Below are positions 53 to 31,830 of a stretch of DNA of 35,191 nt, piece after piece. The first letter of the stretch is position 1, and every line of letters begins with the position of its first letter. The DNA comes from Candidatus Parcubacteria bacterium. GTDB taxonomy: Bacteria; Patescibacteriota; Minisyncoccia; UBA6257; 2-01-FULL-56-20. The DNA lies in NCBI GenBank assembly GCA_027449645.1, contig DAIDLF010000028.1, positions 1 to 35,191 on the forward strand, written 5' to 3'. The position numbers were made by a program, and so were the translations under genes. The notes under the pieces were generated by a model. The model was not told the origin of the DNA, searched no databases, and worked only from the letters and a program-made list of their open reading frames with translations.

Positions 53-124
53 TGCGCCTTGTAGGGATCGAACCTACGACCTCTCCGATGTGAACGGAAC
101 GCTCTACCACTGAGCTAAACGCCC
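53..124 (-). tRNA. tRNA-Val (anticodon CAC), CCA not encoded
   Basis: Reverse complement folds as GGGCGTT-TA-GCTC-AGTGGTA-GAGC-G-TTCCG-TT[CAC]AT-CGGAG-AGGTC-GTAGG-TTCGATC-CCTAC-AAGGCGC-A, with canonical D and T loops. The acceptor stem has two G.G mismatches. Confidence 0.93.
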
Positions 125-1277: not shown

Positions 1278-1305
1278 AGTATAGCGCAACCCCGCCATTT
1301 GTCAA
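1278..1305 (-). promoter_or_regulatory. sigma70 promoter of rplJ-rplL
   Basis: Minus strand TTGACA-16 nt-TATACT just upstream of the leader. Confidence 0.8.
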
Positions 1306-1943
1306 ACCGGCCGCTTCCACTCGGTGAGCTTGCCCGCACGGCGCTCCAGGGGATGCGCAAGCCGCAGCCTTGCAAGGGCGCGCTGGGGCGCGATGGCGAA
1401 GTGCGGCGAGCGGTCGAGGGCATTGTTGATTTCCCAGAGGTCCCTTTCTGCCGTAAGCCATGCGCTTCCGAACCGCAGAAGGCTGAACGGGCGCGAATAG
1501 CTCCGCAAGGTCTTCGTGCCGTCATCCAGGAAGTATTCATGGAAAAAGGACATCGCGAGCTCGCGCGGCGTGCGATAAATGGGGTCGCGGAATCTGAGCA
1601 CGGCGTGATTCGTCTTGCTGAGGGCGCCCCAAAGCCCCCCGCGGCGGAACAGCGCCACCACATGGTCGTGATCGCCCCGGCCTTTCTGGACCTTGAGGTC
1701 CATGAGGAGCGGGGGCTCGCCGTGATACCAGAGCGCGGCGGCGGCAAGGAGCGCGCCCTCTATGCAATGGGCTTCGCGGCGGCAAAGCACGGTGAGCGGC
1801 GAGCGCGACGTATCGCCCCCGGGTTCAAAGTTGATCTTCAGGGAATCCAAAAAATCCTGGATCTTCTCCGGCGTATCCAGTTTTGCGAACAGGGCAGATG
1901 CCTCGGGATGGTCCTTCAGTGCCGTTTTCGGGAACATGCTCAT
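1302..1943 (-). CDS. Transglutaminase-like cysteine protease, vasohibin-like
   Basis: Motifs IQDFLDSLKIN, AHCIEGALLAA, DHVVALF and WGALSKTN...FRDPIYRTPRELAMSF parallel the vasohibin catalytic core as recalled from memory. Confidence 0.7.
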   Translation of the reverse strand: MSMFPKTALKDHPEASALFAKLDTPEKIQDFLDSLKINFEPGGDTSRSPLTVLCRREAHCIEGALLAAAALWYHGEPPLLMDLKVQKGRGDHDHVVALFRRGGLWGALSKTNHAVLRFRDPIYRTPRELAMSFFHEYFLDDGTKTLRSYSRPFSLLRFGSAWLTAERDLWEINNALDRSPHFAIAPQRALARLRLAHPLERRAGKLTEWKRPV

Positions 1944-3219: not shown

Positions 3220-3247
3220 TTGCGGCATGGTGCCCTCTTTTTATAAT
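3220..3247 (+). promoter_or_regulatory. sigma70 promoter driving the riboswitch-led operon
   Basis: TTGCGG-16 nt-TATAAT, about 25 nt upstream of the aptamer. Confidence 0.7.
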
Positions 3248-3270
3248 GAATAGGCATTGGATGCGGCGTC

Positions 3271-3463
3271 GCGGCAAGGGCAAGGCGGTCGCGTCCAAAA
3301 CAAAAGCCATAAAGGCTGGGGAACGGAGAAGCAGGTGAAAATCCTGCACAGTGCCGCTACGGTGATCTGCGCGCAACATCATGCAATGATGGCCTGCGTG
3401 CGGAAAGTCCGGTCGCCGCTCCCCTGCCGTAAACGTCTGACATTCCTCGAGCAAGGGAAAGTG
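3271..3463 (+). promoter_or_regulatory. Cobalamin riboswitch (short, class II / AdoCbl-variant-like)
   Basis: Core GAGAA-GCAGG-TGAAAAT-CCTGC-ACAGTGCCGCTACGGTGA, then P6 TCTGCGCGC/GCGTGCGGA and AAGTCCG. P1 pairs GCGGCA..GGCGGT with GCCGCT..TGCCGT. The L5 TGCCG is complementary to the downstream hairpin loop CGAGCA (kissing loop). Confidence 0.8.
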
Positions 3464-3500
3464 GATACGCATTGCCGGCTTCGCCGCCGGCACCGATGTC

Positions 3501-3533
3501 CCTTCTCTCGCCGAGAAGGTTTTTTATTTTTTT
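3501..3533 (+). terminator. Intrinsic terminator (riboswitch attenuator) upstream of the 3563 CDS
   Basis: CCTTCTC-TCGCC-GAGAAGG followed by TTTTTTATTTTTTT, 30 nt before the ATG. Confidence 0.85.
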
Positions 3534-3562
3534 AAGATCACCCAATTCCCTCACCTCTCCCC

Positions 3563-5689
3563 ATGAACGAAGTCCTGAACCCGGAACTGGAAGAAGCCTG
3601 TCGCGAGACCATCCCCGAAATCGAATTGCGGGAGCAGGTTCCGGAGCGCGATCCCGCAGAGGAAGGCGCGGAGCTTTCGCCATCGCCGAAAAACGAAGAA
3701 GGCGAAAAATCCGGAACCGCATCCGGCCTCGATCTCGTGCTTGAGCGGCACGGGGGTGCCGAAGAGGACTGGAAGATCACCTACCACGAGAGCGGCCATC
3801 GTTTTGATCCCGAGGCCCGGGAGCTGCTCGACGAGCACGGGAAATCGCTCACGAAGGAAATAGAGACGTCGGACGACAATATGTCTGCCGAGAAGATCGC
3901 GGAGCATTACCGGATGCTCGATCATTTCCAATCGAACCCCGACAAGCCCTATCTCCTCCCCGACTGGGTGGAGCAGACCCAGCACGGCGAGGTGATCCAT
4001 TCCACCATCGTCACGCTCGACGAGAACAACATATTCCATTATGAAACGCGATCGCACGAGGTAATGGCGGATGAGCCGGAAGAAGAGGATGCGCGCGAAG
4101 AAGTCCAAGAAGCGCCGGAGGCGGGCATCCTTTCAGATGAAATTCCCGCTTCCGATGATGCCGCAGAAACCGTGGCCAGCATCCCGGTGCTCAGGATCGA
4201 TCTCAATGAAAAGATCCTCGGGTCCCTTTCGGCAGAGCAAGCATATAGTGCAACAGCCGAAACGGCGCCGATCGAGGAAGATATTCTCCCCGCGCTCCAT
4301 GAAAATCCCCATTACGAGACTGCGCCGCATGAAGTTCTTGCGACCATAGGAAAGGATGATGGCACATCGGAAGATGCAGGTCCCGAAACCATGGAGCAAT
4401 CCTCTGTCGCGGCTGAAGCGACGTTCATGGAGATCGCGCCCGCGGAGGCGGTTGGTGCCGAAGCCGCTCCCGAAACGGCAGAAGGGGGAGCGATAACGCA
4501 GGCTGATGGGGCGGCGGCACAAGAGATAAGTCCAATCCCAGAGACAAGCGCAGAAATGCCGGTAGCAGAAGCGGAGGAAGATGGCCAAATCCATCGCTTG
4601 CCCGAAACCGTGATGGCTCCTCGTGAGACAAGCGAATCTATGCCGGCAGACGGCACTGCCGAAGCCGAAACGCTTTCCGAAGCAGTCCTCGAACCTGCAT
4701 CGAGAGAGAAAGAAGGGTCAGAGGCAGAAACAACGGTCGGAAGCGCAGCGGCAGGAGAAAATACCCCCCGGGCCGAAACTGGGGCCGAAACCAGAACTGA
4801 GGCTGAAATTGAAATGTACCCTGCAGTCCATACTGCAGAAACCAGAGAAGCTGTCCAAGTTATGAAATCCTCGGCTGAAAAGGCAGGCGCGACGAATGAA
4901 AGCGAAGTGGAAAGCGCAGAGGCGCAAGCCATTGCCCACAAGACCGCGGCGCGCGCCGGGGAATCGCATCCTCCTCTCCAGGAAAATGCCGACATCGCCA
5001 AATCAGCGGAAAGTTCGACTGACAGGCCGGCAGTAAAAGAAAAAAATGCACCGATCGAGGCTGTCTCCCATGAAGACGCACCGGACTCCGCAGGGCACGA
5101 GATGACTGGTCCCGAAGAAAACGCGTGGACACGGGAAGTGATTGCCGCGCCGCAGGAAAAAACTCTCCCGCGCGAAGCAATCGCCATTGCGCAAAAGCCG
5201 GAGGCGGCGCAACAAGAATCGGCGGTTACCGTCGAGGCCTCCTCCACTGCCCCCGCCGTCGAGGCCCGCGTCATCGCCGCCGGCACTGCCACCGAACGTG
5301 CTGCTTATCCTGAACATGAAAGCGCGGCACTTCCGGAAAGTTCCGCCGAGAAAGATTCTGATATCGCCATCGAGGCATCTGCCGAAGCATCCAACCGCAC
5401 GGAAACGGCGGCAGCGGAAGGGATGACTGGAAGGGAGGTTTTATTGCGGTCGCTCGGTATCGTAACGGAACGGCGGAGCGCAGGTGCGGGCGCGGAGGCG
5501 AAAACGGGCGCGGCCGAGACCCTGGCTCCTTTCACCGTCACCGCGGCCCGCGCGGGCGCGGCAGCGGGAGCACAGACTGCCGGAGCGAACCAATCAGCCG
5601 GGTCACGGCAGCGGGAACAGGAGCTGAAACCGCGCGAACGCGCGAGTGGCACTTCCCTCAACGGGATCACCTTGCGCCGGGCGGCATGA
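3563..5689 (+). CDS. 708-aa acidic Glu/Ala/Thr-rich, largely disordered hypothetical protein
   Basis: Long ORF following the attenuator. About 165 aa of mixed-composition N-terminus, about 480 aa of low-complexity acidic sequence, and an Arg-rich C-terminus ending TLRRAA. No signal peptide or TM helix. Confidence 0.85.
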   Translation: MNEVLNPELEEACRETIPEIELREQVPERDPAEEGAELSPSPKNEEGEKSGTASGLDLVLERHGGAEEDWKITYHESGHRFDPEARELLDEHGKSLTKEIETSDDNMSAEKIAEHYRMLDHFQSNPDKPYLLPDWVEQTQHGEVIHSTIVTLDENNIFHYETRSHEVMADEPEEEDAREEVQEAPEAGILSDEIPASDDAAETVASIPVLRIDLNEKILGSLSAEQAYSATAETAPIEEDILPALHENPHYETAPHEVLATIGKDDGTSEDAGPETMEQSSVAAEATFMEIAPAEAVGAEAAPETAEGGAITQADGAAAQEISPIPETSAEMPVAEAEEDGQIHRLPETVMAPRETSESMPADGTAEAETLSEAVLEPASREKEGSEAETTVGSAAAGENTPRAETGAETRTEAEIEMYPAVHTAETREAVQVMKSSAEKAGATNESEVESAEAQAIAHKTAARAGESHPPLQENADIAKSAESSTDRPAVKEKNAPIEAVSHEDAPDSAGHEMTGPEENAWTREVIAAPQEKTLPREAIAIAQKPEAAQQESAVTVEASSTAPAVEARVIAAGTATERAAYPEHESAALPESSAEKDSDIAIEASAEASNRTETAAAEGMTGREVLLRSLGIVTERRSAGAGAEAKTGAAETLAPFTVTAARAGAAAGAQTAGANQSAGSRQREQELKPRERASGTSLNGITLRRAA

Positions 5690-5720
5690 CTCTTAACAAA
5701 CACGACAACCAACGATCACC

Positions 5721-7397
5721 ATGGCCGACTTCAAAAAGATCCCCTACTACAGTCTCCGCGCGGAAGCGCTCATCGGCACCCTGCCCGTGCTGATCGGCCG
5801 CGCACAGGAGCAGGAGCGGCTCACGCGCGTCATCAACCGCCGCATCAACAACAACGCGCTGATCGTCGGCCCGAGCGGGATCGGCAAGACGACGTTGGCC
5901 TACGGCTGGCTCAAGCGCCTGAGCGAACAGGAAAAATATGACAACCTCCAGCTGATCCAATTCGACACGGATCATTTTTACGGCATCGACGAGGCGATAG
6001 GCGGCGCAAATGGCGGTGCAGGCAAGGTCTACCGCGAAGCGCTCGCATCATTGCCGCCCTGCGTGCTCTTCATCGACAACTTCGGCCGCGCCATGCGCCA
6101 GAGCTCCAGCTTCGTGCACCAGGTGATGCGCCTCTATGATATGACCCTCAAGAAGCCGGACGTGCGCATGGTGATCGCGCTCCAGCCGCAGGAATACGCG
6201 TGGCTCGAACGGGAGCATCCCGCGTTCGTCCAACTCTTCGAGACGGTCCTCCTCAAGCCGCAGACGTCGGCGGAGTACGTGCGCATTTTGGAGACGGCGC
6301 TCCCCCGCCTCAATCACGAGCACCGCATCATCATCCCCACGCAGTCGCTGCAGGAGATCGTCGCGTATGCCGAACGCTTCCCCGCGCTCGGACAGCTGCC
6401 GCGCTCGGCGATCAGCCTCCTTGACGAAGGCATCGCGTTCGCGGCGGCGAGCGGCCGCAAGGAGCTGATGGGCAACGGCGTGGCGCAGGTGGTGGCGAGC
6501 AAGACCGGCATCCCGGTGAGCCAGCTCAATCCCGACGAACTCGCGTCGCTGAAGGAGCTGGAGCAGAAGCTCGGCGAACGGATCATCAGCCAGTCCGGCG
6601 CGATCGCGAAGATCGCCTCCACGCTCCAGCGCGCCAAGCTCGGCATCCGCAATCCACAGAAGCCGCTCGGCTCGTTCCTGATGCTCGGCCCGTCCGGCGT
6701 GGGCAAGACGGAGACGGCAAAACTGATCGCAGAGACAATGTTCGGCCGCAGCGAGAGCTTCATCCGGTTCGACATGTCCGAGTTCGCGCAGGACCACACC
6801 GTCCAGCGGCTGATCGGCGCGCCCGCCGGCTACACCGGCTACGAACAGGGCGGCGCGCTCACGAACGCCCTGCACGCGGAACCGCACTGCCTCATCCTGC
6901 TCGACGAGATCGAGAAAGCGCATCCCAAAATTTTTGATATCTTCCTCCAGGTGCTGGATGACGGCCGCCTGACGTCCGGCCAGAACGAGACCGTCGACGC
7001 CTGCAACGCGATCATCATGGCGACCTCGAACGTCGGCGTGGAGGAGATCCTGAAGGCCGCCGCCGCGGGCGAGACCGACCTGAACCGGCCGGAATTCATC
7101 CAGGAAAAGATGCTCCCCTTGCTCGCCGGTGCGTTCCGCCTTGAATTCCTGAACCGGTTCGACAGCATCCTTATCTTCAACCCGCTCAGCCTGCCGGGGC
7201 TCGTGCAGATCGCCCAGCTCGAGATAAAGAAGATCGAGCGGCGGCTGGCCAAGCACAACGTGCAGTTCACGATCGATCCCGCAGTGCTCGAGGAAAAGAT
7301 AAAGACGATGACCGACCCGCGCTTCGGCGCGCGCCCGGTGAAGCGCTTCATCGAGGAGACCTGCGAATCGCTGCTCGTGCAGTCGCTGTTACAATAA
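5721..7397 (+). CDS. ClpA/ClpB-family (Hsp100) AAA+ ATPase lacking N- and M-domains, with degenerate D1
   Basis: D1: LIGR..E, GPSGIGKT, LFIDNFG. D2: PLGSFLMLGPSGVGKTE, RFDMSEF, LIGAPAGYTGYEQGG, LLDEIEKAH, LDDGRLT, TSNVG, EFLNRFD, FGARP. Confidence 0.93.
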   Translation: MADFKKIPYYSLRAEALIGTLPVLIGRAQEQERLTRVINRRINNNALIVGPSGIGKTTLAYGWLKRLSEQEKYDNLQLIQFDTDHFYGIDEAIGGANGGAGKVYREALASLPPCVLFIDNFGRAMRQSSSFVHQVMRLYDMTLKKPDVRMVIALQPQEYAWLEREHPAFVQLFETVLLKPQTSAEYVRILETALPRLNHEHRIIIPTQSLQEIVAYAERFPALGQLPRSAISLLDEGIAFAAASGRKELMGNGVAQVVASKTGIPVSQLNPDELASLKELEQKLGERIISQSGAIAKIASTLQRAKLGIRNPQKPLGSFLMLGPSGVGKTETAKLIAETMFGRSESFIRFDMSEFAQDHTVQRLIGAPAGYTGYEQGGALTNALHAEPHCLILLDEIEKAHPKIFDIFLQVLDDGRLTSGQNETVDACNAIIMATSNVGVEEILKAAAAGETDLNRPEFIQEKMLPLLAGAFRLEFLNRFDSILIFNPLSLPGLVQIAQLEIKKIERRLAKHNVQFTIDPAVLEEKIKTMTDPRFGARPVKRFIEETCESLLVQSLLQ

Positions 7398-7407
7398 CCA
7401 CACCGCC

Positions 7408-7749
7408 ATGGCCCAAAACCACGCACCAAACAACGAACATCTCTCATCGCCCGAGGCGCCCGCAACGGCACGCGGCGCGAAGACGCCGATGACAACTGCC
7501 GAGCGGCTGACGGTCGCCGATGCGGAGCGCATGGAGACCAATCGCTATGAGATGCTTGAGGTCGTGGAGGGCTACTTGAGCGAACCGTTCAAGAAGTCGG
7601 TGCGCGAGAAGATCCGGCGCGAAAAGGAACGCCTGCTTGCCTTCGTGTCCTATGAGAAGCAGGTGCAGGACGCGGCAAAGAGGATCGTGCGCGTGCTCAA
7701 CCCGGCGTATTTCGTCCATAAGCCGCTCGATAAAACTATGTTCGAATAA
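7408..7749 (+). CDS. Small charged helical hypothetical protein
   Basis: 113-aa ORF filling the gap between the Clp and VirD4-like genes (10 and 30 nt spacers) with host-like codon use. Confidence 0.75.
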   Translation: MAQNHAPNNEHLSSPEAPATARGAKTPMTTAERLTVADAERMETNRYEMLEVVEGYLSEPFKKSVREKIRREKERLLAFVSYEKQVQDAAKRIVRVLNPAYFVHKPLDKTMFE

Positions 7750-7779
7750 AAAAATCGCGCGCGATTAAAAAACACCACC

Positions 7780-9066
7780 ATGTCATCCGTCACCATCGGC
7801 ATCAACGAATTCCGCAACAAGCTGACCTCCATCCAATTCAAGGACGAGGACCGTTTGCGGCACATGTACATGATCGGGAAGACCGGCGTCGGCAAATCGA
7901 CAATCTTCCAAAACATGTGCCTGCAGGACATCAAACAGCACCGCGGCGCGTGCTTCATCGACCCGCATGGCGAATCGATCGACTGGCTGCTCAAGCGCAT
8001 CCCGGCGGACCGCATGGAGGACGTGATCCTTTTCGACCCGAGCGACGCGGAGTTCCCGTTCGGCCTCAACCTGCTCGAGGCGAAGAGCGACTGGGAGCGC
8101 GACTTCCTGGTGAGCGAGGTCATCCAGATCTTCTACAAGCTCTTCGATCCCGACCACACGGGCGTGATCGGTCCCCAGTTCGAACACTGGCTCCGCAACG
8201 CCGCACTCACCGTGATGGCGGGACCGGGCGGCGGCACGATCATCGAGATCCCGCGGCTCTTCGTGGACGCCGGCTTTGAGGCGGAAAAGCGCCGCCACCT
8301 TACCGACCCGCTCGTGATCGATTTCTGGACGAAGCAGATGGCGAAGACCTCCGATTTCCACAAGAGCGAGATGCTCAATTACTTCATGTCCAAGTTCGGC
8401 CATTTCACGAACAACGCGCTCATGCGCAACATCATGGGCCAACATGAAAGCAGCTTCGACTTCGATTCCGTGATGGATGGCCGCAAGATCCTCCTCGTCA
8501 ATCTTTCCAAGGGAAAGATCGGCGAAATGAACGCGCACATCCTCGGCCTGATCCTCGTGGCAAAATTACAGGCCGCCATTTTGCGCCGCGCGCGCCAGAG
8601 CGGCGGCGAGCGCACGCCGTTCTATCTCTACGTGGACGAGTTCCAGAACTTCATTACCGATTCCTTCATCAGTTTGCTCAGCGAGTCGAGGAAGTACGGC
8701 TTAGGCGTGCACCTTACGAACCAATATCTCGCGCAGCTGCCCGCCGCCCTGCGCGATGCCGTGCTGGGCAACGTGGGCACGCTCCTCTCTTTCGAAGTAG
8801 GCGCCGAGGATGCCGAACTGCTCACCAAAGAGTTCGATCCGTTCACCCTGCACGACTTCATCGGCCTGCCCCGGTTCCATTTCTATATAAAACTGATGAT
8901 CGACGGCAAGACGAGCAACGCCTTCTCCGGCGTCGGACTGCCGCCCGAACCGCCCGCACCTGCGAGCGATGCGATCGACGGTGCCGTGGCGATCGTCAAC
9001 CGCCTGGCCTACGGCACGCCGCGCGTGCTCGTGGAAGAGATGATCAGGCGGGAGCTGGCGCAGTAG
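7780..9066 (+). CDS. Soluble VirD4/TrwB/TraG-like (DUF87/HerA-FtsK superfamily) ATPase
   Basis: RLRHMYMIGKTGVGKS (Walker A), FIDPHG, FGLNLLE, ILLVNLSKG, YLYVDEFQ (Walker B), SESRKYGL...NQYLAQL, GNVGT. No TM segment. Confidence 0.92.
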   Translation: MSSVTIGINEFRNKLTSIQFKDEDRLRHMYMIGKTGVGKSTIFQNMCLQDIKQHRGACFIDPHGESIDWLLKRIPADRMEDVILFDPSDAEFPFGLNLLEAKSDWERDFLVSEVIQIFYKLFDPDHTGVIGPQFEHWLRNAALTVMAGPGGGTIIEIPRLFVDAGFEAEKRRHLTDPLVIDFWTKQMAKTSDFHKSEMLNYFMSKFGHFTNNALMRNIMGQHESSFDFDSVMDGRKILLVNLSKGKIGEMNAHILGLILVAKLQAAILRRARQSGGERTPFYLYVDEFQNFITDSFISLLSESRKYGLGVHLTNQYLAQLPAALRDAVLGNVGTLLSFEVGAEDAELLTKEFDPFTLHDFIGLPRFHFYIKLMIDGKTSNAFSGVGLPPEPPAPASDAIDGAVAIVNRLAYGTPRVLVEEMIRRELAQ

Positions 9067-9080
9067 TGCCCTGAAATATT

Positions 9081-10289
9081 TTATTTTTCGGCGTTATAGA
9101 TCTGCTGGATCTCGGATGCGGAAAGGACGCGATTATAAACGCGAAAATCGTCAATGAGGCCTACGAATTGATAGGCCAGAGTGCTGTAATTCCCCATATA
9201 AAGGTTGGGCCCATCAAAAGAGGCCGTACCCGGTGCTGAGGTTTGGCCATCAAGGACCCCATTAGCATAGAGCTTCAGGGAAGCGCCATCATACGTTCCT
9301 ACGATAAAATACCAGATTCCCGGGGTAAGGGTGGTATTCCCTCCAACACTCTGTTGAACGCCATTGATGCGCGCAGAAAAATAATCCTTACCAGCATTAT
9401 CCGCAAGATAAGGAAGAGCAAAACTGGCGAATATCTGCAAACCAGAACTGCTTGCGGGATTGATCCATCCCATCATGGTGAACCCCTGACTCATTGAAAC
9501 ACCCGAGGTGACCCCGTTCGCAAGCACATAGCCCGAGGTAAACTGAAGACAGCTCGATCCGAGTTTACAAGCAGACCCCGATTGCCATGTGGGGAGAGTC
9601 GTCCCCGTGAGTGTTCCGTTGGCTCCATGACCGCTCCAGTCAAGCGTGCTGCTGCCCGATCCTTCATCAAGCGGCCAGTAGCCCACGAGGCCTCGTCCGG
9701 TACTAGGAAAAGTGGAGGCTCCAGACCCTACCTCCGCAAGCGCAGGATCGGCACCTCCCGCGGAACTCGATTTTGCATATTTCATTGATTCCATGAAGGC
9801 AGAGATTCCATATTGGGTGCCGTTCGTGGCATAGGTGTAATAAAGATTGCTTGAGGTTTGGTTTGTGGGATCTACGGGGAGATTGGAAAGAGGGCTGCCT
9901 GCGGAGATAGTGGAGAGGTTCACCGGGATCCAGCCGGTTGAAACCGCGCTGCGATTAGTGGAAGATGCCGCACAATGGTAGGTCCAGGTAGAAGAAGGCA
10001 TACCCAAGCCTTGGCATTGGTCACCGAGAGTAGACGTAGCAGAGGTGTCGAAGGTTGAGATATAGCTGGTGGTAGCCGTGCCAAGAGAAAAACTTGATGC
10101 AGCGGATTGGTCCGTCACATAGAGATTCAAAGCTGAGTTCAGGGTGGCAAGATCGGAGACCCGGTTCGCATCGCGGGATTGGCGCAACAGCTCTGCGGGG
10201 TTCAGGGTCAAAACCACCACGACCGCAAGGATCGCGATGATGGCGATCACGACGAGAAGCTCAATGAGGGTGAAGGCAGAGCGTTTCAT
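9081..10289 (-). CDS. Type IV pilin-like protein with C-terminal LamG/ConA-like lectin domain (copy 2)
   Basis: Prepilin motif MKRSA|FTLIELLVVIAIIAIL, SRDANRVSDL, LPVDP; LamG motifs GLVGYWPLDEGSG, WYFIVGTYDG, FVGLIDDFRVYNRVLS. Confidence 0.93.
   Translation of the reverse strand: MKRSAFTLIELLVVIAIIAILAVVVVLTLNPAELLRQSRDANRVSDLATLNSALNLYVTDQSAASSFSLGTATTSYISTFDTSATSTLGDQCQGLGMPSSTWTYHCAASSTNRSAVSTGWIPVNLSTISAGSPLSNLPVDPTNQTSSNLYYTYATNGTQYGISAFMESMKYAKSSSAGGADPALAEVGSGASTFPSTGRGLVGYWPLDEGSGSSTLDWSGHGANGTLTGTTLPTWQSGSACKLGSSCLQFTSGYVLANGVTSGVSMSQGFTMMGWINPASSSGLQIFASFALPYLADNAGKDYFSARINGVQQSVGGNTTLTPGIWYFIVGTYDGASLKLYANGVLDGQTSAPGTASFDGPNLYMGNYSTLAYQFVGLIDDFRVYNRVLSASEIQQIYNAEK
10174..10277. 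repeat. Near-identical pilin N-terminal coding block, copy A
   Basis: Matches 11434-11537 at an offset of 1260 nt, including identical runs 10174-10199 and 10219-10262. Confidence 0.9.
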
Positions 10290-11570
10290 TTATTTCTCGG
10301 CGTTATAAAGCGCCTGGACTTCTGCCGAAGAAAGCGCGCGGTTATAAAGACGAACGTCATCAATGATGCCTGGGAAAAGATTACTGCCGCCCCGCGATCC
10401 AATCGTGAAGGGAATCGTATTGGCCCCAGGTGGATAGGCCCAAGATACCGGGGCACCCGCAACTCCATCTCGATAGGCAATAACTTGCGTTCCATTGAAA
10501 ACTCCTGTGACGAAATGCCAATTCCCGTCACCAATCGCACCTCCGGTTGCCGTACCGCTGTTGCCATTCGCTCCTGAACGGATATTGAACGTAATACCTC
10601 CCATGTAATAACCCAGATCAAAACCACAGGTTCCCGCGCCGACAGTGCATCCGCCATATTCAGCGCCAATACCGTTATATGACGAATTGGGCACTGGTAT
10701 CCTTATCCATGCCGCAACCGTAAGGTTCCCAACAAGCGCAGTGCTTGCACTGCTCGTAACCATCACATAATTCGTGGTTCCGTCAAAGTTTCCTGCCCAT
10801 CCCCCCACCTTTGCATTGCTCGTATAATGGCTTCCGGCTATCATCGATCCATTCCATGCCCCGTTATTCCCATTGCTCGTCTGGTCGTAAGCGATGGTGC
10901 CAGATCCTTCGTTAAGCGGCCAGTAACCGACGAGACCAGCCGGGTCAAAGAGGGAAGAGACGCTGGGAGTGCCTCCGAAGATGACCTCGGGGAAGAACGT
11001 GTCTTGGGGTAAGGCACCATATTGCGCTTTGTACTTCTGAGATTCAAGGTCGGCAGTGACCACAAACTGGGACCCATTCGTATTATAGCTGTAAAAAAGA
11101 TTGGAACTCGTCTGATTCACGGGATCTACGGGAAGATTGCCCAAAGGAGGGCCGGAGGAGATGTTCGAAAAATTCACCGGAATCCAGCCGGTCGTCGTCG
11201 CGTTGCGATAGGTGGAGCTTGCGGAGCATTGCCAAGATTGTCCAGTGCCTAAAGTAGGGAGAGCGAGGCCCTGGCATTGGTCACCCGCCGTACTCGTGGC
11301 CGAAGAGTCATAGACCGAAGGATAAGTGGCGTTTGCGTTCCCTAACGAGAAGGAAGAGGCCCCTGACTGGTCCGTGACATACAGATTGAGGGCGCTGTTC
11401 AGCGTCGCCATGTCGCTTACCCTATTCGCGTCACGGGATTGGCGCAACAGCTCTGCGGGATTCAAGGTGAGGACCACGACGACCGCAAGGATCGCGATGA
11501 TGGCGATCACGACGAGAAGCTCGATGAGGGTGAAGGCGCGACTTTTGCCGTGCGCATTATAAAATGCCAT
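10290..11570 (-). CDS. Type IV pilin-like protein with C-terminal LamG/ConA-like lectin domain (copy 1)
   Basis: KSRA|FTLIELLVVIAIIAIL, GLVGYWPLNEGSG, WHFVTGVFNG, FPGIIDDVRLYNRALS. Its stop codon abuts the ATG of copy 2. Confidence 0.93.
   Translation of the reverse strand: MAFYNAHGKSRAFTLIELLVVIAIIAILAVVVVLTLNPAELLRQSRDANRVSDMATLNSALNLYVTDQSGASSFSLGNANATYPSVYDSSATSTAGDQCQGLALPTLGTGQSWQCSASSTYRNATTTGWIPVNFSNISSGPPLGNLPVDPVNQTSSNLFYSYNTNGSQFVVTADLESQKYKAQYGALPQDTFFPEVIFGGTPSVSSLFDPAGLVGYWPLNEGSGTIAYDQTSNGNNGAWNGSMIAGSHYTSNAKVGGWAGNFDGTTNYVMVTSSASTALVGNLTVAAWIRIPVPNSSYNGIGAEYGGCTVGAGTCGFDLGYYMGGITFNIRSGANGNSGTATGGAIGDGNWHFVTGVFNGTQVIAYRDGVAGAPVSWAYPPGANTIPFTIGSRGGSNLFPGIIDDVRLYNRALSSAEVQALYNAEK
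11434..11537. repeat. Near-identical pilin N-terminal coding block, copy B
   Basis: Matches 10174-10277. Confidence 0.9.
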
Positions 11571-11593: not shown

Positions 11594-12466
11594 CTATATC
11601 CCGAAGATCCGCTGCGCGTTCGCCCAGATCTGCGCCTTCATTTCGTCCGTGGAAACGCCTTTGAGCTCGGCGAGTTTTGCGACGGTGTGCACCACGAATG
11701 CCGGCTCGTTGCGCTTGCCGCGGAACGGTACGGGTGCCACGTAGGGCGCGTCGGTCTCGGACAAGATGCGGTCGGCCGGGATCGCGGCGATGGCGGCATC
11801 GTAATCGCGCGTAAAGGTGACCACGCCGCCGAAGGTAAAGGAATAACCGAGCTCAAGCAGCGCCCGCGCATCGTCCGGTGTGCCAGTGAAGAAATGGATG
11901 ATGCCGGGCGGCAGGCCGCCGCCGCCGTGCTCGCGCAGGATCGGGATCAGGTCGTGGAACGCGTCGCGACAGTGGATCATGAGCGGCTTCCGCACCTCAC
12001 GCGCGAGGGCGATCTGCGCCAAAAAGGCGTCCTTCTGCTTGCGCACCTGTTCATCGCGCGGTTCGTCGTCGCTGAAATGAAAATAGTCCAGGCCGCATTC
12101 GCCGATGGCGAGCGTCTTCGGGTGCAGCGCGAGCGTACGGTAATAATCGTGATCAAAGACCTCGCCGCGCGACGTGAACGCTTTCGCGGCCTCTCCCCCG
12201 CCGAGCTCCTTCTCGTCGTGGAATGACTTGCTCGTGTGCACCGGATGCAGCCCGATGACGGCATAGACGCCATACTCGATCTCGTCCGCCAGCTCCACGG
12301 CACGGCGCGACGTGTCGCGCTGGGTGCCAACGTTCACCACATAGACATCGGCCTCGCGGGCGTGCGCCAAGACCGCGGCGCGGTCGGCGTCAAACAGCGC
12401 AAACTGCGCATGAGTGTGGGCATCAAGAAAATGCATATCGGAAGATGAAGGTTCCATGGTGAACAT
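11594..12466 (-). CDS. tatD: TatD family deoxyribonuclease
   Basis: DAHTH, IGLHP, AIGECGLDY, IHCRDA, IIHFFTG, ETDAPY, RGKRNEP. The start may be up to 30 nt downstream. Confidence 0.95.
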   Translation of the reverse strand: MFTMEPSSSDMHFLDAHTHAQFALFDADRAAVLAHAREADVYVVNVGTQRDTSRRAVELADEIEYGVYAVIGLHPVHTSKSFHDEKELGGGEAAKAFTSRGEVFDHDYYRTLALHPKTLAIGECGLDYFHFSDDEPRDEQVRKQKDAFLAQIALAREVRKPLMIHCRDAFHDLIPILREHGGGGLPPGIIHFFTGTPDDARALLELGYSFTFGGVVTFTRDYDAAIAAIPADRILSETDAPYVAPVPFRGKRNEPAFVVHTVAKLAELKGVSTDEMKAQIWANAQRIFGI

Positions 12467-27375: not shown

Positions 27376-30300
27376 CTAGAGGGATTTCAGAAGGCTTTCA
27401 AGCTGACTCAGCATGCCCTGGAGCGATTGGCTCACGATCGCCGTCTGATTGCTCGTGTCGGTCGCGGCCGCGTGGAACAATCCTCCGGTGACCGGCGTAA
27501 GGATCGGCTTGATGATCGGAAGCGGGGCAATCGTGACAGGGCTCACGGTCGCGCTTACCTGCGAGGAAGGCGTTCCTACGAGGCCGTTCATATCCTGTGC
27601 GGCAACGGCGTAATAGTAGGTTCCCGCCGCGAGCCCCGAGTCGGTATATGAGAGCACATTCCCCTGCACGATCCTGTTGGAAGCGCTCGGCGTAAAGTTT
27701 GGCGTGGTGCTGCGGTAGATGTTATAGACCCCTATACCGTTCGTCGCCGTGGCCGCCGACCAGGAGAGGGCCACCGCCGTGCCATTCGCGGTTGCGGAAA
27801 GATTCTGCACCTGGGACACGGTCGGCTGGACCGTCACCGGAGCACTGTTGCAGACGGTCATGCTGCAGCCATTGCTCTCCAGCACCGTATGGCCGCCATA
27901 CGGGCAGTACGGCATGATGTCCGGACATGCCACCGGAAGCTTCGGCGCGCTTGACCCTACGGTCATGTTGTTCCCCAGGATGATGAAGCTTTGATTCGCC
28001 ACGGTGGCGTAGTTGCCCCCGAAGCTGCCGCTCAAACCGAGATCCAGCGCCCCGGATGCCGAAGGGGCGATATCAGCGACATAGGTGAGCACCACGCTTC
28101 CCCCGTTCGGAATGCTCACGGTCTGGTTGAAGAACACGTTTGCCTGGGCACCGGTCACGCCTCCGGCTGAAAGATTGGCGACACTCCCAAGCAACGTGGA
28201 GCCGTTATACACCCTTATGTTCGAGAGTGAGCTTATCGCATTCGCGCTGTTCGAGCCCGCGCCGACGTAGGTGAGGTTCACCGGGCCGCCGGCCGCGGAG
28301 AACTTGACGCTTGCGAAGGTCACGCCCGACTGGCCCGCCGATACGGTCTGCGATGCAGGGGTGGAGGCATCAAGGCCGGCGCTCAGCGTACCATAAGCGG
28401 AAGCGGCAGGCGGATTGATGGTGAGCGTCACCGGAACAGTCTGATAGGTGGACAGCGAGGAGTTGATGATGAACACCGTGCCCGAGTAGGTGCCTGCCGA
28501 AAGGCCTGAGGTGTTGGGCGTAAAGGTCGCCGACGTGAATCCTCCGCCATTGGTGGTTGTGTCCATCTTCATCCATCCGCAGTTGACGCTTCCGTTCACG
28601 ATTGCGTTGCAGTTCCACGAGACCTGCCAGCCGATCGGCAGACTTGGGCTGAAGGTGAGCGTCTGCGCGGCAGGATTCGCCCCGCCCTGGGTCCCGGTGA
28701 ACGAGAGCGCACTCGGAGCGATGGTGGGGTTCTGGGATACGGCGGACGTCACCGTGATCGGGATGGTCTTGGTCACCTGCGTGGTAAGGGCCGGATATTG
28801 CGCGCCGCAGATATTCGTCTGCGAACAATACAGGGAAACGCTCAAGCTATAGGTTCCCGCAGTCGATGCGCTCGGCAGGGTCACCTGCCACAATCCCGTT
28901 GCGCTGTTATAGCTGCCGTTTGCCCAACTCACGTACGACGTCGATCCCTGCGGATACAGATACGCCTGCACATTGAAGCCGCGGGCAGAGGTTGCGGGCT
29001 GCCCTCCCGGAGCGGCACCCGTACTGCCCGGAGAGGCGATGCCATTCAGCGTGAACAAAATCGACTGATTCGGCTGATACGATGACTGTATCCCCGAGAT
29101 GTCCGTGATAGAGAGCGAAGCCTGCGACTGCTGGCCGGCGACAATGGAGAACGGCGCCGGGCTCTGCGCATAATCGTAAGGGTTCACGTATTGCTTCACT
29201 ATCTGGACGTAATATGCCGATCCCGGAGCCAATGTGGCCCCGTTGGTCACCGTGCCCACATTCCAATTGAGCTGCGTGGTGCCATATACCTCGCCCGCAA
29301 TGCCGGCCGCGCTGCCGTTGGCTTGCGTAATGAATACGGTATAGGTGGCATTGGAAGATCCGGCGCTGTCCGACCATTTGATGGTCTGTGTGCTGCCGAG
29401 CGGCCACTGTTCCCCTCCTGCCGGAGCAAGGATATTGATGGTATTGCCGGTTGACGGATTCACCGTAACGTCTGCCGTGAGCGGCATGGATGCCCCGTAA
29501 TCAAGCTGGCCCACTGCCTGGATGGATACCCCAGTCTGGTTCATGAACTGCAGGACATCCGTCCCATTCATGGCAACCGGACGGGCCACATCCCCGCAGG
29601 TAAACGTATGGCCGTTCGTGATATCAAAGATCGTAAGGCCCGTGACACAGCCCACAGTGAAATCGGCATTGCTGGTCCCTGAAAGCGAGCCCGGAATGTT
29701 CCAGGAGAACGTCACCTCGCCCGAACCGTTCACCGAGGTCGGCGATACCGAAAACGACGGCGTGGTGCCTCCTGTCCCTCCCGCGCCGCTCAGGTTGACC
29801 ACGGTAATGGGCGCCTGCTGTTGGGCGGAAAGCGTAAGGGAGACCGCCGAGTTGTCCGTGCCATCATAGTACGAGAAGTCGGCGTTATTCTGGATGGTGG
29901 CGACGACGCTCTGGGCGACATTCGGCGAAGAAGGAAGCCTGCTCAGATCGCCCCACACTGAAAGCGAATAGGAGCTGCCCGCAGGGATGATCAGCGGGTT
30001 GGCATGCGGCAGGAAGGTCCACGTGATCCGGTTTCCGGATATGGAGGACTGCGCCATGCGGTCGGCGGCAACAATATCATTACCGTTCGGGTCATGGAGC
30101 ACCACGGAATTCAGGAATGATTGCGCATGAGAGGCGCTGCCGCTGAAGCTCAGCGTGAGGCTATTCGGGACGGCATCCCCGGCGGCATTGGCCGTAAGAT
30201 TGATGCTGCCGAGCTGCTCAAAAGAGGCCGGAGGCATGGACGCCACCGACTGGCCGGCAAGCGTGAGCGCCGTCCGCACCACCGTGACAGGAGCCGCGGC

Positions 30301-31710
30301 GGCGCCATTCGCGATCACCGTGGCCGTCTCATTGGAAGTCGCTCCGAAGGCCGTACCGCCGGCAATGCTGAAGGTATGCACGCTGTCATCGGTCGCCGAG
30401 CTGCCGGTATAGGAACCGGCGTCCCCGTAAAGCGAGAGCGAGAGCGAACTGCCTGCAGGGACCACCAGCGCATTGGACAGGGAGAAAGTATATTGGTAGC
30501 CGCCGCCGATCTTCACCGGAGCGCTCGCCGCACCGAGCATGGAGAACTTGCAGCAGGTGCCGATCTGCAGGTTCGAGAATGAAGGCAGGTTCCCCGAAGC
30601 GGTCATGTCGGTCACGGTAAGATTCGTGAACTTCACGGCCTCGGCGGCATCCTGATTCGAGAACGTGAACGTTCCGAGCAGGTTGCCGGTGGTATTCATG
30701 ATCGCAAGGCTGGCAGCCGGCGTGTTCGGAGACAACGAGACGCTCACCACCGGGCCGGAGCCCGTTGATGCGCCGCCGATCGTCATCGTCTGCCCCGTTG
30801 TGGGCGTGCAGGAGTAGGCGCTATAGCTTGTAAGGCCCGCCGCCGTGCACGAGGCAAGCGTCGTGGCATTGGCGGGAGCAAGGCCGGCAAGAGACTGGCT
30901 TACCGCCTTCACGTCAGCAAAAACATTGACGTTCGCGGACGATCCGGCAGGGATGCGGACGGGCGAACCGGAAAACACATAATTGTTGTTGTCCGCCACC
31001 ACTGCCTGGGCAGCGCCGAACTGGACGCCATTCACATACAGTCTGAGATTCTGGAAATCGCTGCCGTTTTGTCCGGCGCCCACCACAATGCTGCTCACCG
31101 AAACTCCCTCGGCGGACGGCGCGGAAACCGCATAGCCGCCGACAAGCTGGTTTGCCGCCCCGGATGCGAGCGGCATGGAGGCTACGTCAGGGTTCCGCAC
31201 GACCGCAAGCTGGTTCCCCGTGGAAGAAGCGCTGCATCCAAAGAGCGCATTCAGTTTTGTCCGCGTCGAGGGACCCACATAACCCGTACCGTTGGTCAGG
31301 CCGTACGGAGCGAGGATCGTACTGGCATATTTCTCCTGGAAGCTCGTGACCGCAGCCGCAGTCTGATCGTCAAAGGTCCCGGTCATCTGCACGGACTCGC
31401 CGTCCTTCTGAAGCGCCGTCTGGAGGGCGGTCACTTCTGCGCCGGATGCGCCGTACGTAAGATTATCGGAGAATGCGTAACACCACGTCGAAGTACCCGA
31501 CGTGGTCGGGGTACCCGCGGAACCCGAGGTGCCTGCGCCGCCCGAAGCGGCCAACTGGCTCTGCAATACCTGCAACTGCGCGAGCAGTGCCGCGATCTGG
31601 GCCTGGATGCTCGCGGCACTCGGCGCCGGCGCCGCCTGGGCAAAGGACATTCCCGGCGCCACTAACACGGCCAGTGCGAACACTGCCGCCAATTTATTTT
31701 TTATATGCAT
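27376..31710 (-). CDS. Large (about 1444 aa) modular secreted S-layer/adhesin-like protein
   Basis: Signal peptide MHIKNKLAAVFALAVL..SFA; short coiled coil plus PG-binding-like domain; multiple Ig/beta-sandwich modules (P.GGEQW..G, BACON-like, FN3); a Cys-rich mini-module; amphipathic C-terminal helix. Confidence 0.9.
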   Translation of the reverse strand: MHIKNKLAAVFALAVLVAPGMSFAQAAPAPSAASIQAQIAALLAQLQVLQSQLAASGGAGTSGSAGTPTTSGTSTWCYAFSDNLTYGASGAEVTALQTALQKDGESVQMTGTFDDQTAAAVTSFQEKYASTILAPYGLTNGTGYVGPSTRTKLNALFGCSASSTGNQLAVVRNPDVASMPLASGAANQLVGGYAVSAPSAEGVSVSSIVVGAGQNGSDFQNLRLYVNGVQFGAAQAVVADNNNYVFSGSPVRIPAGSSANVNVFADVKAVSQSLAGLAPANATTLASCTAAGLTSYSAYSCTPTTGQTMTIGGASTGSGPVVSVSLSPNTPAASLAIMNTTGNLLGTFTFSNQDAAEAVKFTNLTVTDMTASGNLPSFSNLQIGTCCKFSMLGAASAPVKIGGGYQYTFSLSNALVVPAGSSLSLSLYGDAGSYTGSSATDDSVHTFSIAGGTAFGATSNETATVIANGAAAAPVTVVRTALTLAGQSVASMPPASFEQLGSINLTANAAGDAVPNSLTLSFSGSASHAQSFLNSVVLHDPNGNDIVAADRMAQSSISGNRITWTFLPHANPLIIPAGSSYSLSVWGDLSRLPSSPNVAQSVVATIQNNADFSYYDGTDNSAVSLTLSAQQQAPITVVNLSGAGGTGGTTPSFSVSPTSVNGSGEVTFSWNIPGSLSGTSNADFTVGCVTGLTIFDITNGHTFTCGDVARPVAMNGTDVLQFMNQTGVSIQAVGQLDYGASMPLTADVTVNPSTGNTINILAPAGGEQWPLGSTQTIKWSDSAGSSNATYTVFITQANGSAAGIAGEVYGTTQLNWNVGTVTNGATLAPGSAYYVQIVKQYVNPYDYAQSPAPFSIVAGQQSQASLSITDISGIQSSYQPNQSILFTLNGIASPGSTGAAPGGQPATSARGFNVQAYLYPQGSTSYVSWANGSYNSATGLWQVTLPSASTAGTYSLSVSLYCSQTNICGAQYPALTTQVTKTIPITVTSAVSQNPTIAPSALSFTGTQGGANPAAQTLTFSPSLPIGWQVSWNCNAIVNGSVNCGWMKMDTTTNGGGFTSATFTPNTSGLSAGTYSGTVFIINSSLSTYQTVPVTLTINPPAASAYGTLSAGLDASTPASQTVSAGQSGVTFASVKFSAAGGPVNLTYVGAGSNSANAISSLSNIRVYNGSTLLGSVANLSAGGVTGAQANVFFNQTVSIPNGGSVVLTYVADIAPSASGALDLGLSGSFGGNYATVANQSFIILGNNMTVGSSAPKLPVACPDIMPYCPYGGHTVLESNGCSMTVCNSAPVTVQPTVSQVQNLSATANGTAVALSWSAATATNGIGVYNIYRSTTPNFTPSASNRIVQGNVLSYTDSGLAAGTYYYAVAAQDMNGLVGTPSSQVSATVSPVTIAPLPIIKPILTPVTGGLFHAAATDTSNQTAIVSQSLQGMLSQLESLLKSL

Positions 31711-31830
31711 TGTTTTTTTGCGGATAAACGACCATGGCCCCTGACCAGGGAGCCGTAAATATTTGTTGCCATTATTAAACCACGCCAGGAAGACGGCGCG
31801 CAAGCAGGCTGTGCATAACCGCAGGATCCG

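Follow-up and report, generated by a model that had tools for sequence, protein, structure and literature searches.

Few elements predict B12-related function as well as cobalamin riboswitches do. What does such a riboswitch control when the genes behind it carry no recognisable B12 chemistry? The question is raised by a 35,191-nt stretch of a Candidatus Parcubacteria bacterium (GenBank GCA_027449645.1, contig DAIDLF010000028.1, forward strand; hereafter the window), in which a cobalamin-type leader precedes a cassette of four genes for an acidic protein (gene 1), a short Hsp100/Clp-type AAA+ ATPase (gene 2), a small protein (gene 3) and a soluble ATPase resembling type IV secretion coupling proteins (T4CPs; gene 4). 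Here, in organisms that rely on other cells for vitamins, the riboswitch appears to control a conserved cassette of this unexpected content. A search of full-text literature, supplementary files excluded, returned no paper in which a cobalamin riboswitch precedes Clp or T4CP genes and, beyond the passages cited below, nothing on riboswitches in Patescibacteria. A preliminary description of the window had proposed that the four genes make up a substrate, an unfoldase, an adaptor and a coupling ATPase gated by the vitamin. We find that the four-gene unit with its riboswitch leader is real and conserved across diverged Patescibacteria, and we tentatively read it as an operon induced by B12 starvation.

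A conserved four-gene unit behind a cobalamin riboswitch

The genome to which the window belongs (G000) comprises 665,599 bases in 40 contigs and is 85% complete. Covariance-model search placed an adenosylcobalamin (AdoCbl) riboswitch aptamer directly upstream of gene 1 (Table 1); it exceeds the gathering threshold of its model and is the sole RF01482 match in the 0.67-Mb genome. The cobalamin-type aptamer and the attenuator of the preliminary description were thereby both recovered, the latter as a terminator stem followed by a T-run. Its promoter fared less evenly. The two boxes are readable in the sequence and the sister locus L014 has TTGTCG, a 16-nt spacer and TATACT at the same position, with a similar -10 box; the site is absent from the list produced by a consensus scan, because its -35 hexamer matches the consensus at just three of six positions. 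TTGACA-type -35 boxes can be read before several other cassette leaders. The four open reading frames (ORFs) lie on one strand with intergenic gaps of 31, 10 and 30 nt, as first described, and the + strand between 2900 and 9400 has no terminator-like site besides 3501-3533, hence none inside the four-gene unit.

The minimum free energy fold of 3296-3540 (z -3.57) does not contain the terminator. In this fold, the 3' hairpin region of the aptamer (~3446-3468) pairs with the terminator arms. The pairing is a candidate anti-terminator of the kind expected of a ligand-dependent OFF switch. Such a leader would also be a natural ligand-controlled element of Patescibacteria, for which, according to the passages cited from PMC11665869, there is a search for inducible expression tools.

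The analysis covered 41 related genomes, samples of 151 and 401 genomes of the class and two pattern scans run with an alignment of the first Clp ring only; synteny was read from tblastn matches and ORF maps. Of the loci confirmed by the scans, 7 of 44 in genome contigs and 10 of 23 in metagenome contigs belong to the family. Three of the latter ten are identical to earlier ones, giving 16 distinct cassette loci in all, with GC contents of 32-59%. Wherever the contig is long enough, the order is acidic, short Clp, small and T4CP-like: the acidic gene sits directly 5' of the short Clp gene in 15 of 15 loci having upstream sequence, the small gene separates the Clp gene from the T4CP-like gene in all 14 loci long enough to show it, and the T4CP-like gene holds its place in 13 of 13. 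In the same-genus genome G021, where locus L014 lies, the short Clp protein is 87% identical to that of the window, the AdoCbl match reaches 66.7 bits and the gene order is the same. The conserved neighbourhood and the covariance-model match for which the preliminary description had called were thus both found, the whole arrangement recurring in 15 other loci.

A cobalamin-type leader stands at the same place and in the same orientation in all 13 loci with upstream sequence, and three Rfam model types of the cobalamin clan (CL00101) are represented among them. Five leaders reach the gathering threshold: the window and L014 (AdoCbl), L032 (AdoCbl-II), and L035 and L083 (Cobalamin). Four others match below it, with E values from 9e-06 to 0.022 (L033, at 48.3 bits, L030, L034 and L085, the last cut at its 5' side by the contig end). 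A MAFFT alignment of eight compact aptamers gave only nine RNAalifold pairs, and an nhmmer hidden Markov model of the eight was used in place of a custom covariance model. It identified the leaders of L084 (1.4e-09), L086 (2.7e-08) and L080 (7.4e-06), and no other match at E ≤10 in 1.62 Mb of sequence comprising the loci and the whole genome G000. The leader of L031 aligns pairwise with the AdoCbl-II match of L032, with a 25-nt insertion. A hairpin with a T-run precedes gene 1 in 11 of the 13 loci. The leaders of L080, L084 and L086 carry large insertions in peripheral loops and, despite their clear homology with the compact leaders, are missed by all Rfam models of the clan at E ≤1; Rfam-based censuses of the cobalamin riboswitch in Patescibacteria will undercount.

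Table 1. Positions of the features discussed (window coordinates unless another genome, contig or locus is named)
Feature	Position	Strand	Details
Putative sigma-70-type promoter	3220..3247	+	-35 TTGCGG 3220-3225, 16-nt spacer, -10 TATAAT 3242-3247; read from sequence
AdoCbl riboswitch aptamer	3301-3469	+	RF01482, 56.6 bits (gathering 50), E 5.6e-08, full model 1-149
Expression platform	3473..3533	+	hairpin 3473-3492, terminator stem 3501-3519, T-run 3520-3533; terminator scan and local fold
Gene 1	3563-5689	+	708-aa acidic protein, isoelectric point (pI) 4.4, Asp+Glu 21%; proposed client
Gene 1, folded N-terminal alpha/beta domain	3722..4066	+	~residues 54-168; AlphaFold2
Gene 1, conserved C-terminal tail	5663..5686	+	GITLRRAA
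Gene 2	5721-7397	+	558-aa two-ring Hsp100/Clp-type AAA+, ring 1 degenerate, ring 2 intact; Pfam and NCBIfam
Gene 2, ring-1 Walker B	6069..6080	+	FIDN, residues 117-120, without catalytic Glu
Gene 3	7408-7749	+	113 aa, disordered N-terminus, helical hairpin (36-56, 59-96), conserved C-terminal YF..K.L; proposed adaptor
Gene 4	7780-9066	+	428-aa soluble VirD4/TraD/TrwB-like (T4CP-like) P-loop ATPase
~200-215-aa neighbour, window	1302-1943	-
~200-215-aa neighbour, L030	5341-5988	-
~200-215-aa neighbour, L035	12350-12958	-	weak DUF553/transglutaminase-like match
~200-215-aa neighbour, L114	8384-8995	-
Leader, L080	1391-1572		large peripheral-loop insertion
Leader, L084	2114-2335		large peripheral-loop insertion
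Leader, L086	3589-3708		large peripheral-loop insertion
Pilin-like genes, tandem	9081-10289, 10290-11570	-	N-terminal methylation motif and Laminin_G_3/ConA-like domain
TatD-type DNase gene	11594-12466
T4CP-like paralogue, G000	C19 10211-11683
T4CP-like paralogue, G000	C19 15533-17626
T4CP-like paralogue, G000	C26 13105-15501	-
Clp-like and T4CP-like matches, G030	C8:9024-9974, C1:35361-36602		two in-frame TGA each
Second reductase-like copy, G001	C2:38627-40428		in-frame TGA (1 and 3)
Group I intron match, L033	15104-15411	+	52.9 bits (gathering 50)
Longest ORF of the window	27376-31803	-	1475 aa
tRNA gene	53-124	-	55.1 bits

Ties to B12 and the exchange of payloads

The preliminary description had noted that none of the four genes is of a B12 type, and Pfam and NCBIfam indeed place none of them in a family of B12 transport, synthesis, B12 binding or B12-independent isozymes. 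The genome itself has a use for the vitamin. Its class II ribonucleotide reductase, a protein of 779 aa carrying an ATP-cone and the RNR-II insertion domain, depends on B12 and is the sole B12 enzyme that we found there; searches of the genome for a B12-binding domain (PF02310) and a FecCD permease gave nothing above cut-off. The slot behind the riboswitch offers a second connection. Cobalamin-type matches at E ≤0.001 occur in 10 of a further 150 genomes of the class, two of them at or above gathering, and downstream of these ten lie genes for secreted DUF4430 proteins, some also bearing a prenyltransferase-like toroid (seven cases), for membrane proteins resembling the S component of energy-coupling factor transporters (two) and an unassigned gene (one). 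DUF4430 we take to resemble transcobalamin, and one of the DUF4430 proteins has a weak Cobalamin_bind match.

Two loci bring the cassette and DUF4430 together. In L031, a DUF4430 gene begins 22 nt past the T4CP-like gene and is followed on the same strand by a gene for a DUF4430/prenyltransferase-like protein. Genome G187 and contig L035 are syntenic, with nine flanking genes at 61-83% amino acid identity, and their promoters, aptamers and terminators are nearly alike base for base up to the T-run. Beyond the T-run the two part: the cassette of four genes follows in L035, and one DUF4430 gene, coding for 559 aa, follows in G187. The L031 neighbourhood and the G187/L035 swap tie the cassette to the B12 regulon. 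Being exchangeable with a B12-capture gene, the cassette gives a concrete way of testing how Patescibacteria meet a shortage of cofactors.

The payload swap behind one riboswitch could also be the mark of an accessory, horizontally moving cassette, serving in conflict or defence or as a selfish element, that came to stand behind a pre-existing riboswitch and whose B12 control is incidental. Its occurrence is patchy, in 2 of 41 relatives and, of 401 genomes across the class, in that of the window alone, yet the genomes with it range widely in GC content. An even sample of the class, 400 genomes besides the window's, contained no first ring of the short Clp at E 1e-25; all 41 genomes of the related set have longer ClpB- and ClpC-like genes. 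The PADLOC models DolB and PDC-M37B resemble the second Clp ring, and mad8 resembles gene 4. These resemblances are confined to generic P-loop ATPase regions, and no specific PADLOC system was matched. An incidental landing would not be expected to place a cobalamin-type leader of one of three model types before every cassette whose upstream sequence is available. In addition, the ORF maps show no integrase, transposase or repeat adjoining the cassette, and viral contigs yielded no relative of the short-Clp first ring. We hold this account to be most improbable.

The slot also has recurrent neighbours. A protein of ~200-215 aa adjoins it in four lineages, where the payload is either the cassette or a DUF4430 gene; only its L035 copy has a weak match to a known family (Table 1). 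YchF adjoins the slot in the window and in L079. In the same-genus genomes G007 and G022, YchF alone was matched within 12-13 kb when the synteny around it was compared.

The four proteins and a proposed mechanism

Gene 2 matches AAA_2, ClpB_D2-small and AAA_lid_9. It begins at the linker of the first ring and gives one continuous alignment to positions 175-720 of the ClpA model; in a family of ~555-aa proteins, both the N domain and the coiled-coil M domain of ClpB/Hsp104-type proteins are missing from it. ClpB models match it in two separate stretches at 376 bits against a cut-off of 1232, and its profile matches in the PDB are the first rings of Hsp104, ClpC, ClpB and ClpA. The two rings differ in their motifs across 29 family members. 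In ring 1 the Walker A lysine is kept in all 29, and residue 120, the last of the Walker B motif, is Asn in 16, Asp in 9, Ser in 2, Thr in 1, Gly in 1 and the catalytic Glu in none. Alignment with Hsp104 further shows that ring 1 of gene 2 lacks the tyrosine pore-loop segment of the KYRGEFE type. In ring 2 the Walker A lysine, the Walker B Asp-Glu, the pore-loop tyrosine, the arginine finger and sensor 2 are present in 29 of 29. The loss of the ring-1 Walker B Glu, as in the half-dead Clp of the preliminary description, is a property of the family. The ClpP-docking tripeptide [ILVM]-G-[FLIM], sought between sensor 1 and the arginine finger, occurs in none of the 29.

A protein search with ring 1 returned 66 proteins at E ≤1e-10. 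Sixty-two are 486-593 aa long and 38-100% identical, and the other four are long ClpV- or ClpB-like proteins with 24-27% identity. The short family was met solely in Patescibacteria-named records; the source names, where given, are Wolfebacteria, Kaiserbacteria, Pacebacteria and Paceibacterota. It constitutes a new short Hsp100 family defined by its degenerate first ring.

Gene 1 products are acidic in all loci (pI 4.1-5.3), are 335-877 aa long where the gene is complete and differ greatly in their spacers. The highest Kyte-Doolittle value of gene 1 in a 19-residue window is 0.86, which gives no hydrophobic signal or transmembrane segment. Neither gene 1 nor gene 3 matches anything in Pfam, NCBIfam, PADLOC or PHROG. 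AlphaFold2, run on 13 sequences, modelled 107 residues of gene 1 with a predicted local distance difference test (pLDDT) value of at least 90 and predicts disorder for the remainder. The N-terminal domain was assigned no fold: Foldseek gave no match in the PDB at E ≤0.001, and its best ones were PAS-like chains with an E value of 0.02 and template modelling scores of 0.26-0.42. A feature search of the ESM Atlas gave a best score of 0.82, under the lead level. Searched as a profile against 1.84 billion representative proteins, the domain matched 146 representatives at E ≤0.001 (86 at E ≤1e-10), lying at residues ~40-200 in nearly all of them, and 142 of the 146 have a pI below 5.5.

The most constant feature besides the domain is the C-terminus. 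The last two residues are [AVT][AV] in 15 of 15 loci, as in the tails NGITLRRAA, GIRMKKAA and PEFELAA; among the 146 representatives, 92 end in AA and 110 in [AVT][AV], and many of the short exceptions to the tail and pI pattern may be cut genes. A C-terminal Ala-Ala, as in the recognition of ssrA by ClpX and ClpA, is a classic handle for Clp-type pore loops. The acidic proteins form a family marked by a gene-encoded C-terminal Ala-Ala tail and co-encoded with a likely unfoldase.

The features of gene 3 were read from an alignment of 13 homologues and an AlphaFold2 model. Its family members are ~105 aa, and the Foldseek search with the model gave no fold match (best E 2.4). An ESMFold2 complex of gene 4 with gene 3 scored 0.87, against 0.66 for the best of three controls, a margin of +0.21. 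When the tool was calibrated, 58 of 80 solved complexes attained this mark, as did 2 of 110 mismatched pairs, counts that are only rough for the alignments used here. At least 95% of contacts agree between model runs and the partner pLDDT is at least 65. In the predicted interface, the gene 3 hairpin (residues 34-82) packs on the C-terminal helix of gene 4 (residues 399-424).

Within the cassette, gene 4 is conserved best, at 68-90% identity between loci. It exceeds the Pfam cut-offs of TrwB_AAD_bind (PF10412, 27.5 bits against 20.5) and TraG-D_C (PF12696, 22.7 against 22); NCBIfam matches to TraD subfamilies (45 bits against 366) and to the DNA-translocating ATPase CedD (E 1.6e-05) lie far under cut-off. 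The Walker A GKTGVGKS and the Walker B YLYVDEF are invariant in 12 sequences, whose mean column identity is 78%. Its profile found no relative among PDB sequences at E 0.01, and it matches phrog_5156, of function unknown, at 5.3e-51. By the same hydropathy measure, gene 4 has no N-terminal transmembrane anchor: its maximum is 1.65 at residue 250, compared with 2.76 at residue 1 in an anchored paralogue on contig C26. T4CP-like paralogues of 500-800 aa, 38-46% identical to gene 4, occur in the same genomes, in 40 of 41 relatives. Three further paralogues are encoded in the window's genome; one has an N-terminal membrane anchor and an N-terminal extension of ~370 aa, and another carries a fused treble-clef zinc finger and has two zinc-ribbon proteins, each of 594 aa and encoded in tandem, as neighbours. 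In its passages on these proteins, a 2025 survey counts 5,713 VirD4-like T4CP homologues across 2,918 Patescibacteria genomes, places just 148 of these close to virB4 and raises possible exaptation for the homologues, which are mostly far from virB4; these passages mention neither Clp nor riboswitches (PMC12102498). The cassette assigns a context to one branch of the 'orphan' homologues that they describe (PMC12102498).

Relatives of gene 4 among T4CP, FtsK and HerA proteins pump DNA, and in other bacteria B12-independent reductases stand under cobalamin riboswitches. By analogy, gene 4 could be a DNA translocase in a cassette that boosts DNA uptake or processing for deoxynucleotide salvage when the B12-dependent reductase is starved. 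The weak TraD-subfamily and CedD matches agree with this idea, as does the class II reductase as the only B12 enzyme found, and type IV pilin genes and a TatD-type DNase gene adjoin the cassette in the window. These neighbours are not retained in other loci, and both pilin genes are absent from the syntenic region of G021. Salvage also gives no role to an Ala-Ala-tailed acidic protein or a Clp motor, and Pfam and NCBIfam reveal no nuclease, relaxase or DNA-binding domain in the cassette. We consider it very unlikely. The two pilin-like genes stand in tandem between the cassette and the TatD-type gene.

The reading that we tentatively prefer, at a little under even confidence, is an operon induced by B12 starvation that encodes a client, an unfoldase, an adaptor and a coupling ATPase, with co-transcription, the ligand response, export and the sensing of host contact suggested in the preliminary description all putative. 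With abundant AdoCbl, the whole aptamer, 3' hairpin included, would fold, the terminator would form and transcription would halt upstream of gene 1; with little AdoCbl, the region of that hairpin would pair with the terminator arms and the operon would be transcribed. Gene 1 would be the client, in which a long disordered polyacidic spacer joins a folded N-terminal domain to an Ala-Ala tail resembling the C-terminal degrons of Clp substrates. Gene 2 would be its dedicated unfoldase or threading motor, and because only ring 2 is catalytically complete and the ClpP-docking loop is missing, it would remodel or thread the client instead of degrading it. Gene 3 may serve as a helical-hairpin adaptor docked on the C-terminal helix of gene 4. 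Gene 4, presumably a soluble T4CP-like hexameric ATPase, might take over the threaded client or couple it to a membrane partner encoded elsewhere. The roles assigned in the preliminary description have gained from the Ala-Ala tail, from the uniform loss of the ClpP loop and, marginally, from the predicted docking of gene 3 on gene 4. We read the cassette as a response to corrinoid shortage because of the class II reductase and because a DUF4430 gene stands behind the same riboswitch in G187; it may be an alternative or additional response, most likely the deployment of the acidic protein.

A bolder version of this operon is distinctly unlikely in our view. In it, the host-dependent, ultra-small bacteria would have made of the orphan T4CP and the Clp with one active ring a previously undescribed, riboswitch-gated export machine for corrinoid starvation, independent of a channel or borrowing one, which threads a polyanionic effector tail-first by its Ala-Ala end out of the cell or into the host bacterium so as to gain B12 or ease a deoxynucleotide shortage, and which evolution can exchange for a transcobalamin-like capture protein under the same riboswitch.

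Several points weigh against the starvation-induced operon that we prefer. The OFF logic of the riboswitch is deduced from the architecture of the leader, and the reading of the Ala-Ala tail by gene 2 is drawn by analogy from ssrA, ClpX and ClpA. The Asp found at the ring-1 Walker B position in 9 of 29 members suggests that this ring may not be dead in all of them. The client domain has no clear known fold in a wide VIA-align search (best Z 5.3), and its assignment as DUF4430- or transcobalamin-like was rejected at an hhalign probability of 0.5%. The best control in the complex modelling was the one in which gene 3 was kept and gene 4 was swapped for an unrelated protein, making the pass marginal; because this control retained gene 3 and still scored 0.66, the hairpin appears 'sticky' in the model and the docking lends modest support. 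The cassette with its riboswitch was found in only two relatives (G000 and G021) out of 41, and the class II reductase is present in 27 of them, so that the cassette is not the general answer to a need for B12. Contig C1 of the window's genome has a DUF4430 gene beside a membrane-protein gene, with no riboswitch match. Export finds little in the locus to work through, since the cassette encodes no membrane protein and none of its four products has a hydrophobic segment. VirB4 was also not found in the 85% complete genome, which has no PF03135 match and whose lone PF12846 match, below cut-off, is a T4CP paralogue; neither VirB4 nor relaxase genes appear in the ORF maps of the cassette loci.

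These absences favour a cytosolic regulatory circuit without export, in which the acidic protein is a polyanionic inhibitor or decoy whose level is set, or whose partners are released, by the motor, adaptor and ATPase. It could, for example, mimic a nucleic acid and in that way sequester proteins that bind DNA or RNA, or slow down replication, once B12-dependent deoxynucleotide synthesis fails. The strong acidity of the client family and the reductase as the only B12 enzyme found are in line with such a circuit, and so is the location of most Patescibacteria T4CP homologues far from virB4, perhaps after exaptation, in the survey passages cited (PMC12102498). The loss of the ClpP loop in 29 of 29 members means that turnover of the acidic protein would require another protease. 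A cytosolic circuit also leaves unexplained why the T4CP-like ATPase is the most conserved gene and why an extracellular B12-binding protein can occupy the same slot. We regard it as unlikely.

Other observations were made along the way. Genome G030 has in-frame TGA codons inside a Clp-like and a T4CP-like match, and G001 has them in a second reductase-like copy; pseudogenes, errors of assembly or an altered reading of TGA might account for them. The cassette-bearing contig of L033, labelled Saccharibacteria, has a group I intron match. The window also contains a tRNA gene and, at the other side of the cassette, its longest ORF.

Comparison with known systems

With B12 acquisition operons of the btuB/btuFCD or DUF4430 type, the cassette shares a cobalamin-clan aptamer followed by an intrinsic terminator and a presumed repression by the ligand. 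Unlike them, it encodes no transporter, no B12-binding domain and no B12-independent isozyme. Gene 2 resembles the class 1 Hsp100 proteins ClpB/Hsp104, ClpA, ClpC and ClpV in having two AAA+ rings in one chain, a complete second ring and the ClpB_D2-small domain, and it departs from them by the lack of N and M domains, of the ring-1 Walker B glutamate, of the tyrosine pore segment and of the ClpP loop.

The ssrA tag, the adaptor SspB and the motors ClpX and ClpA make up a C-terminal Ala-Ala degron system. The client of the cassette likewise ends in ...AA-COOH, with a conserved motif (NGITL..) a few residues upstream, and has a small adaptor and a Clp motor encoded alongside. In contrast to ssrA, the tail of gene 1 is encoded by the gene and not added by transfer-messenger RNA (tmRNA), and gene 2 lacks the loop for a protease partner. 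The tmRNA tag of the window's genome (contig C10) is ANSKVAAPAFAFA, which ends in Phe-Ala, not Ala-Ala.

Gene 4 is like VirD4, TrwB and TraD in its TrwB_AAD_bind and TraG-D_C domains, the latter described as the 'TraM recognition site'. TraM docks on the C-terminus of TraD, much as the small helical gene 3 product is predicted to bind the C-terminal helix of gene 4. Unlike these proteins, gene 4 lacks a membrane anchor and is a distinct short paralogue, and neither a relaxase nor VirB4 was found close to it or elsewhere in the genome.

Type VII secretion combines the AAA+ chaperone EccA, the FtsK-like coupling ATPase EccC and WXG100 helical hairpins, and its clients are recognised by their C-termini. 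There is no sequence or fold match between this system and the cassette (EsxB was met by Foldseek at E ~6), and the cassette has no membrane core genes. What the cassette has in common with the cytosolic apparatus of type VII secretion is an AAA+ ATPase, an ATPase of the FtsK/HerA superfamily, a helical hairpin of ~100 aa and a client that would be recognised by its C-terminus, an analogy of logic only.

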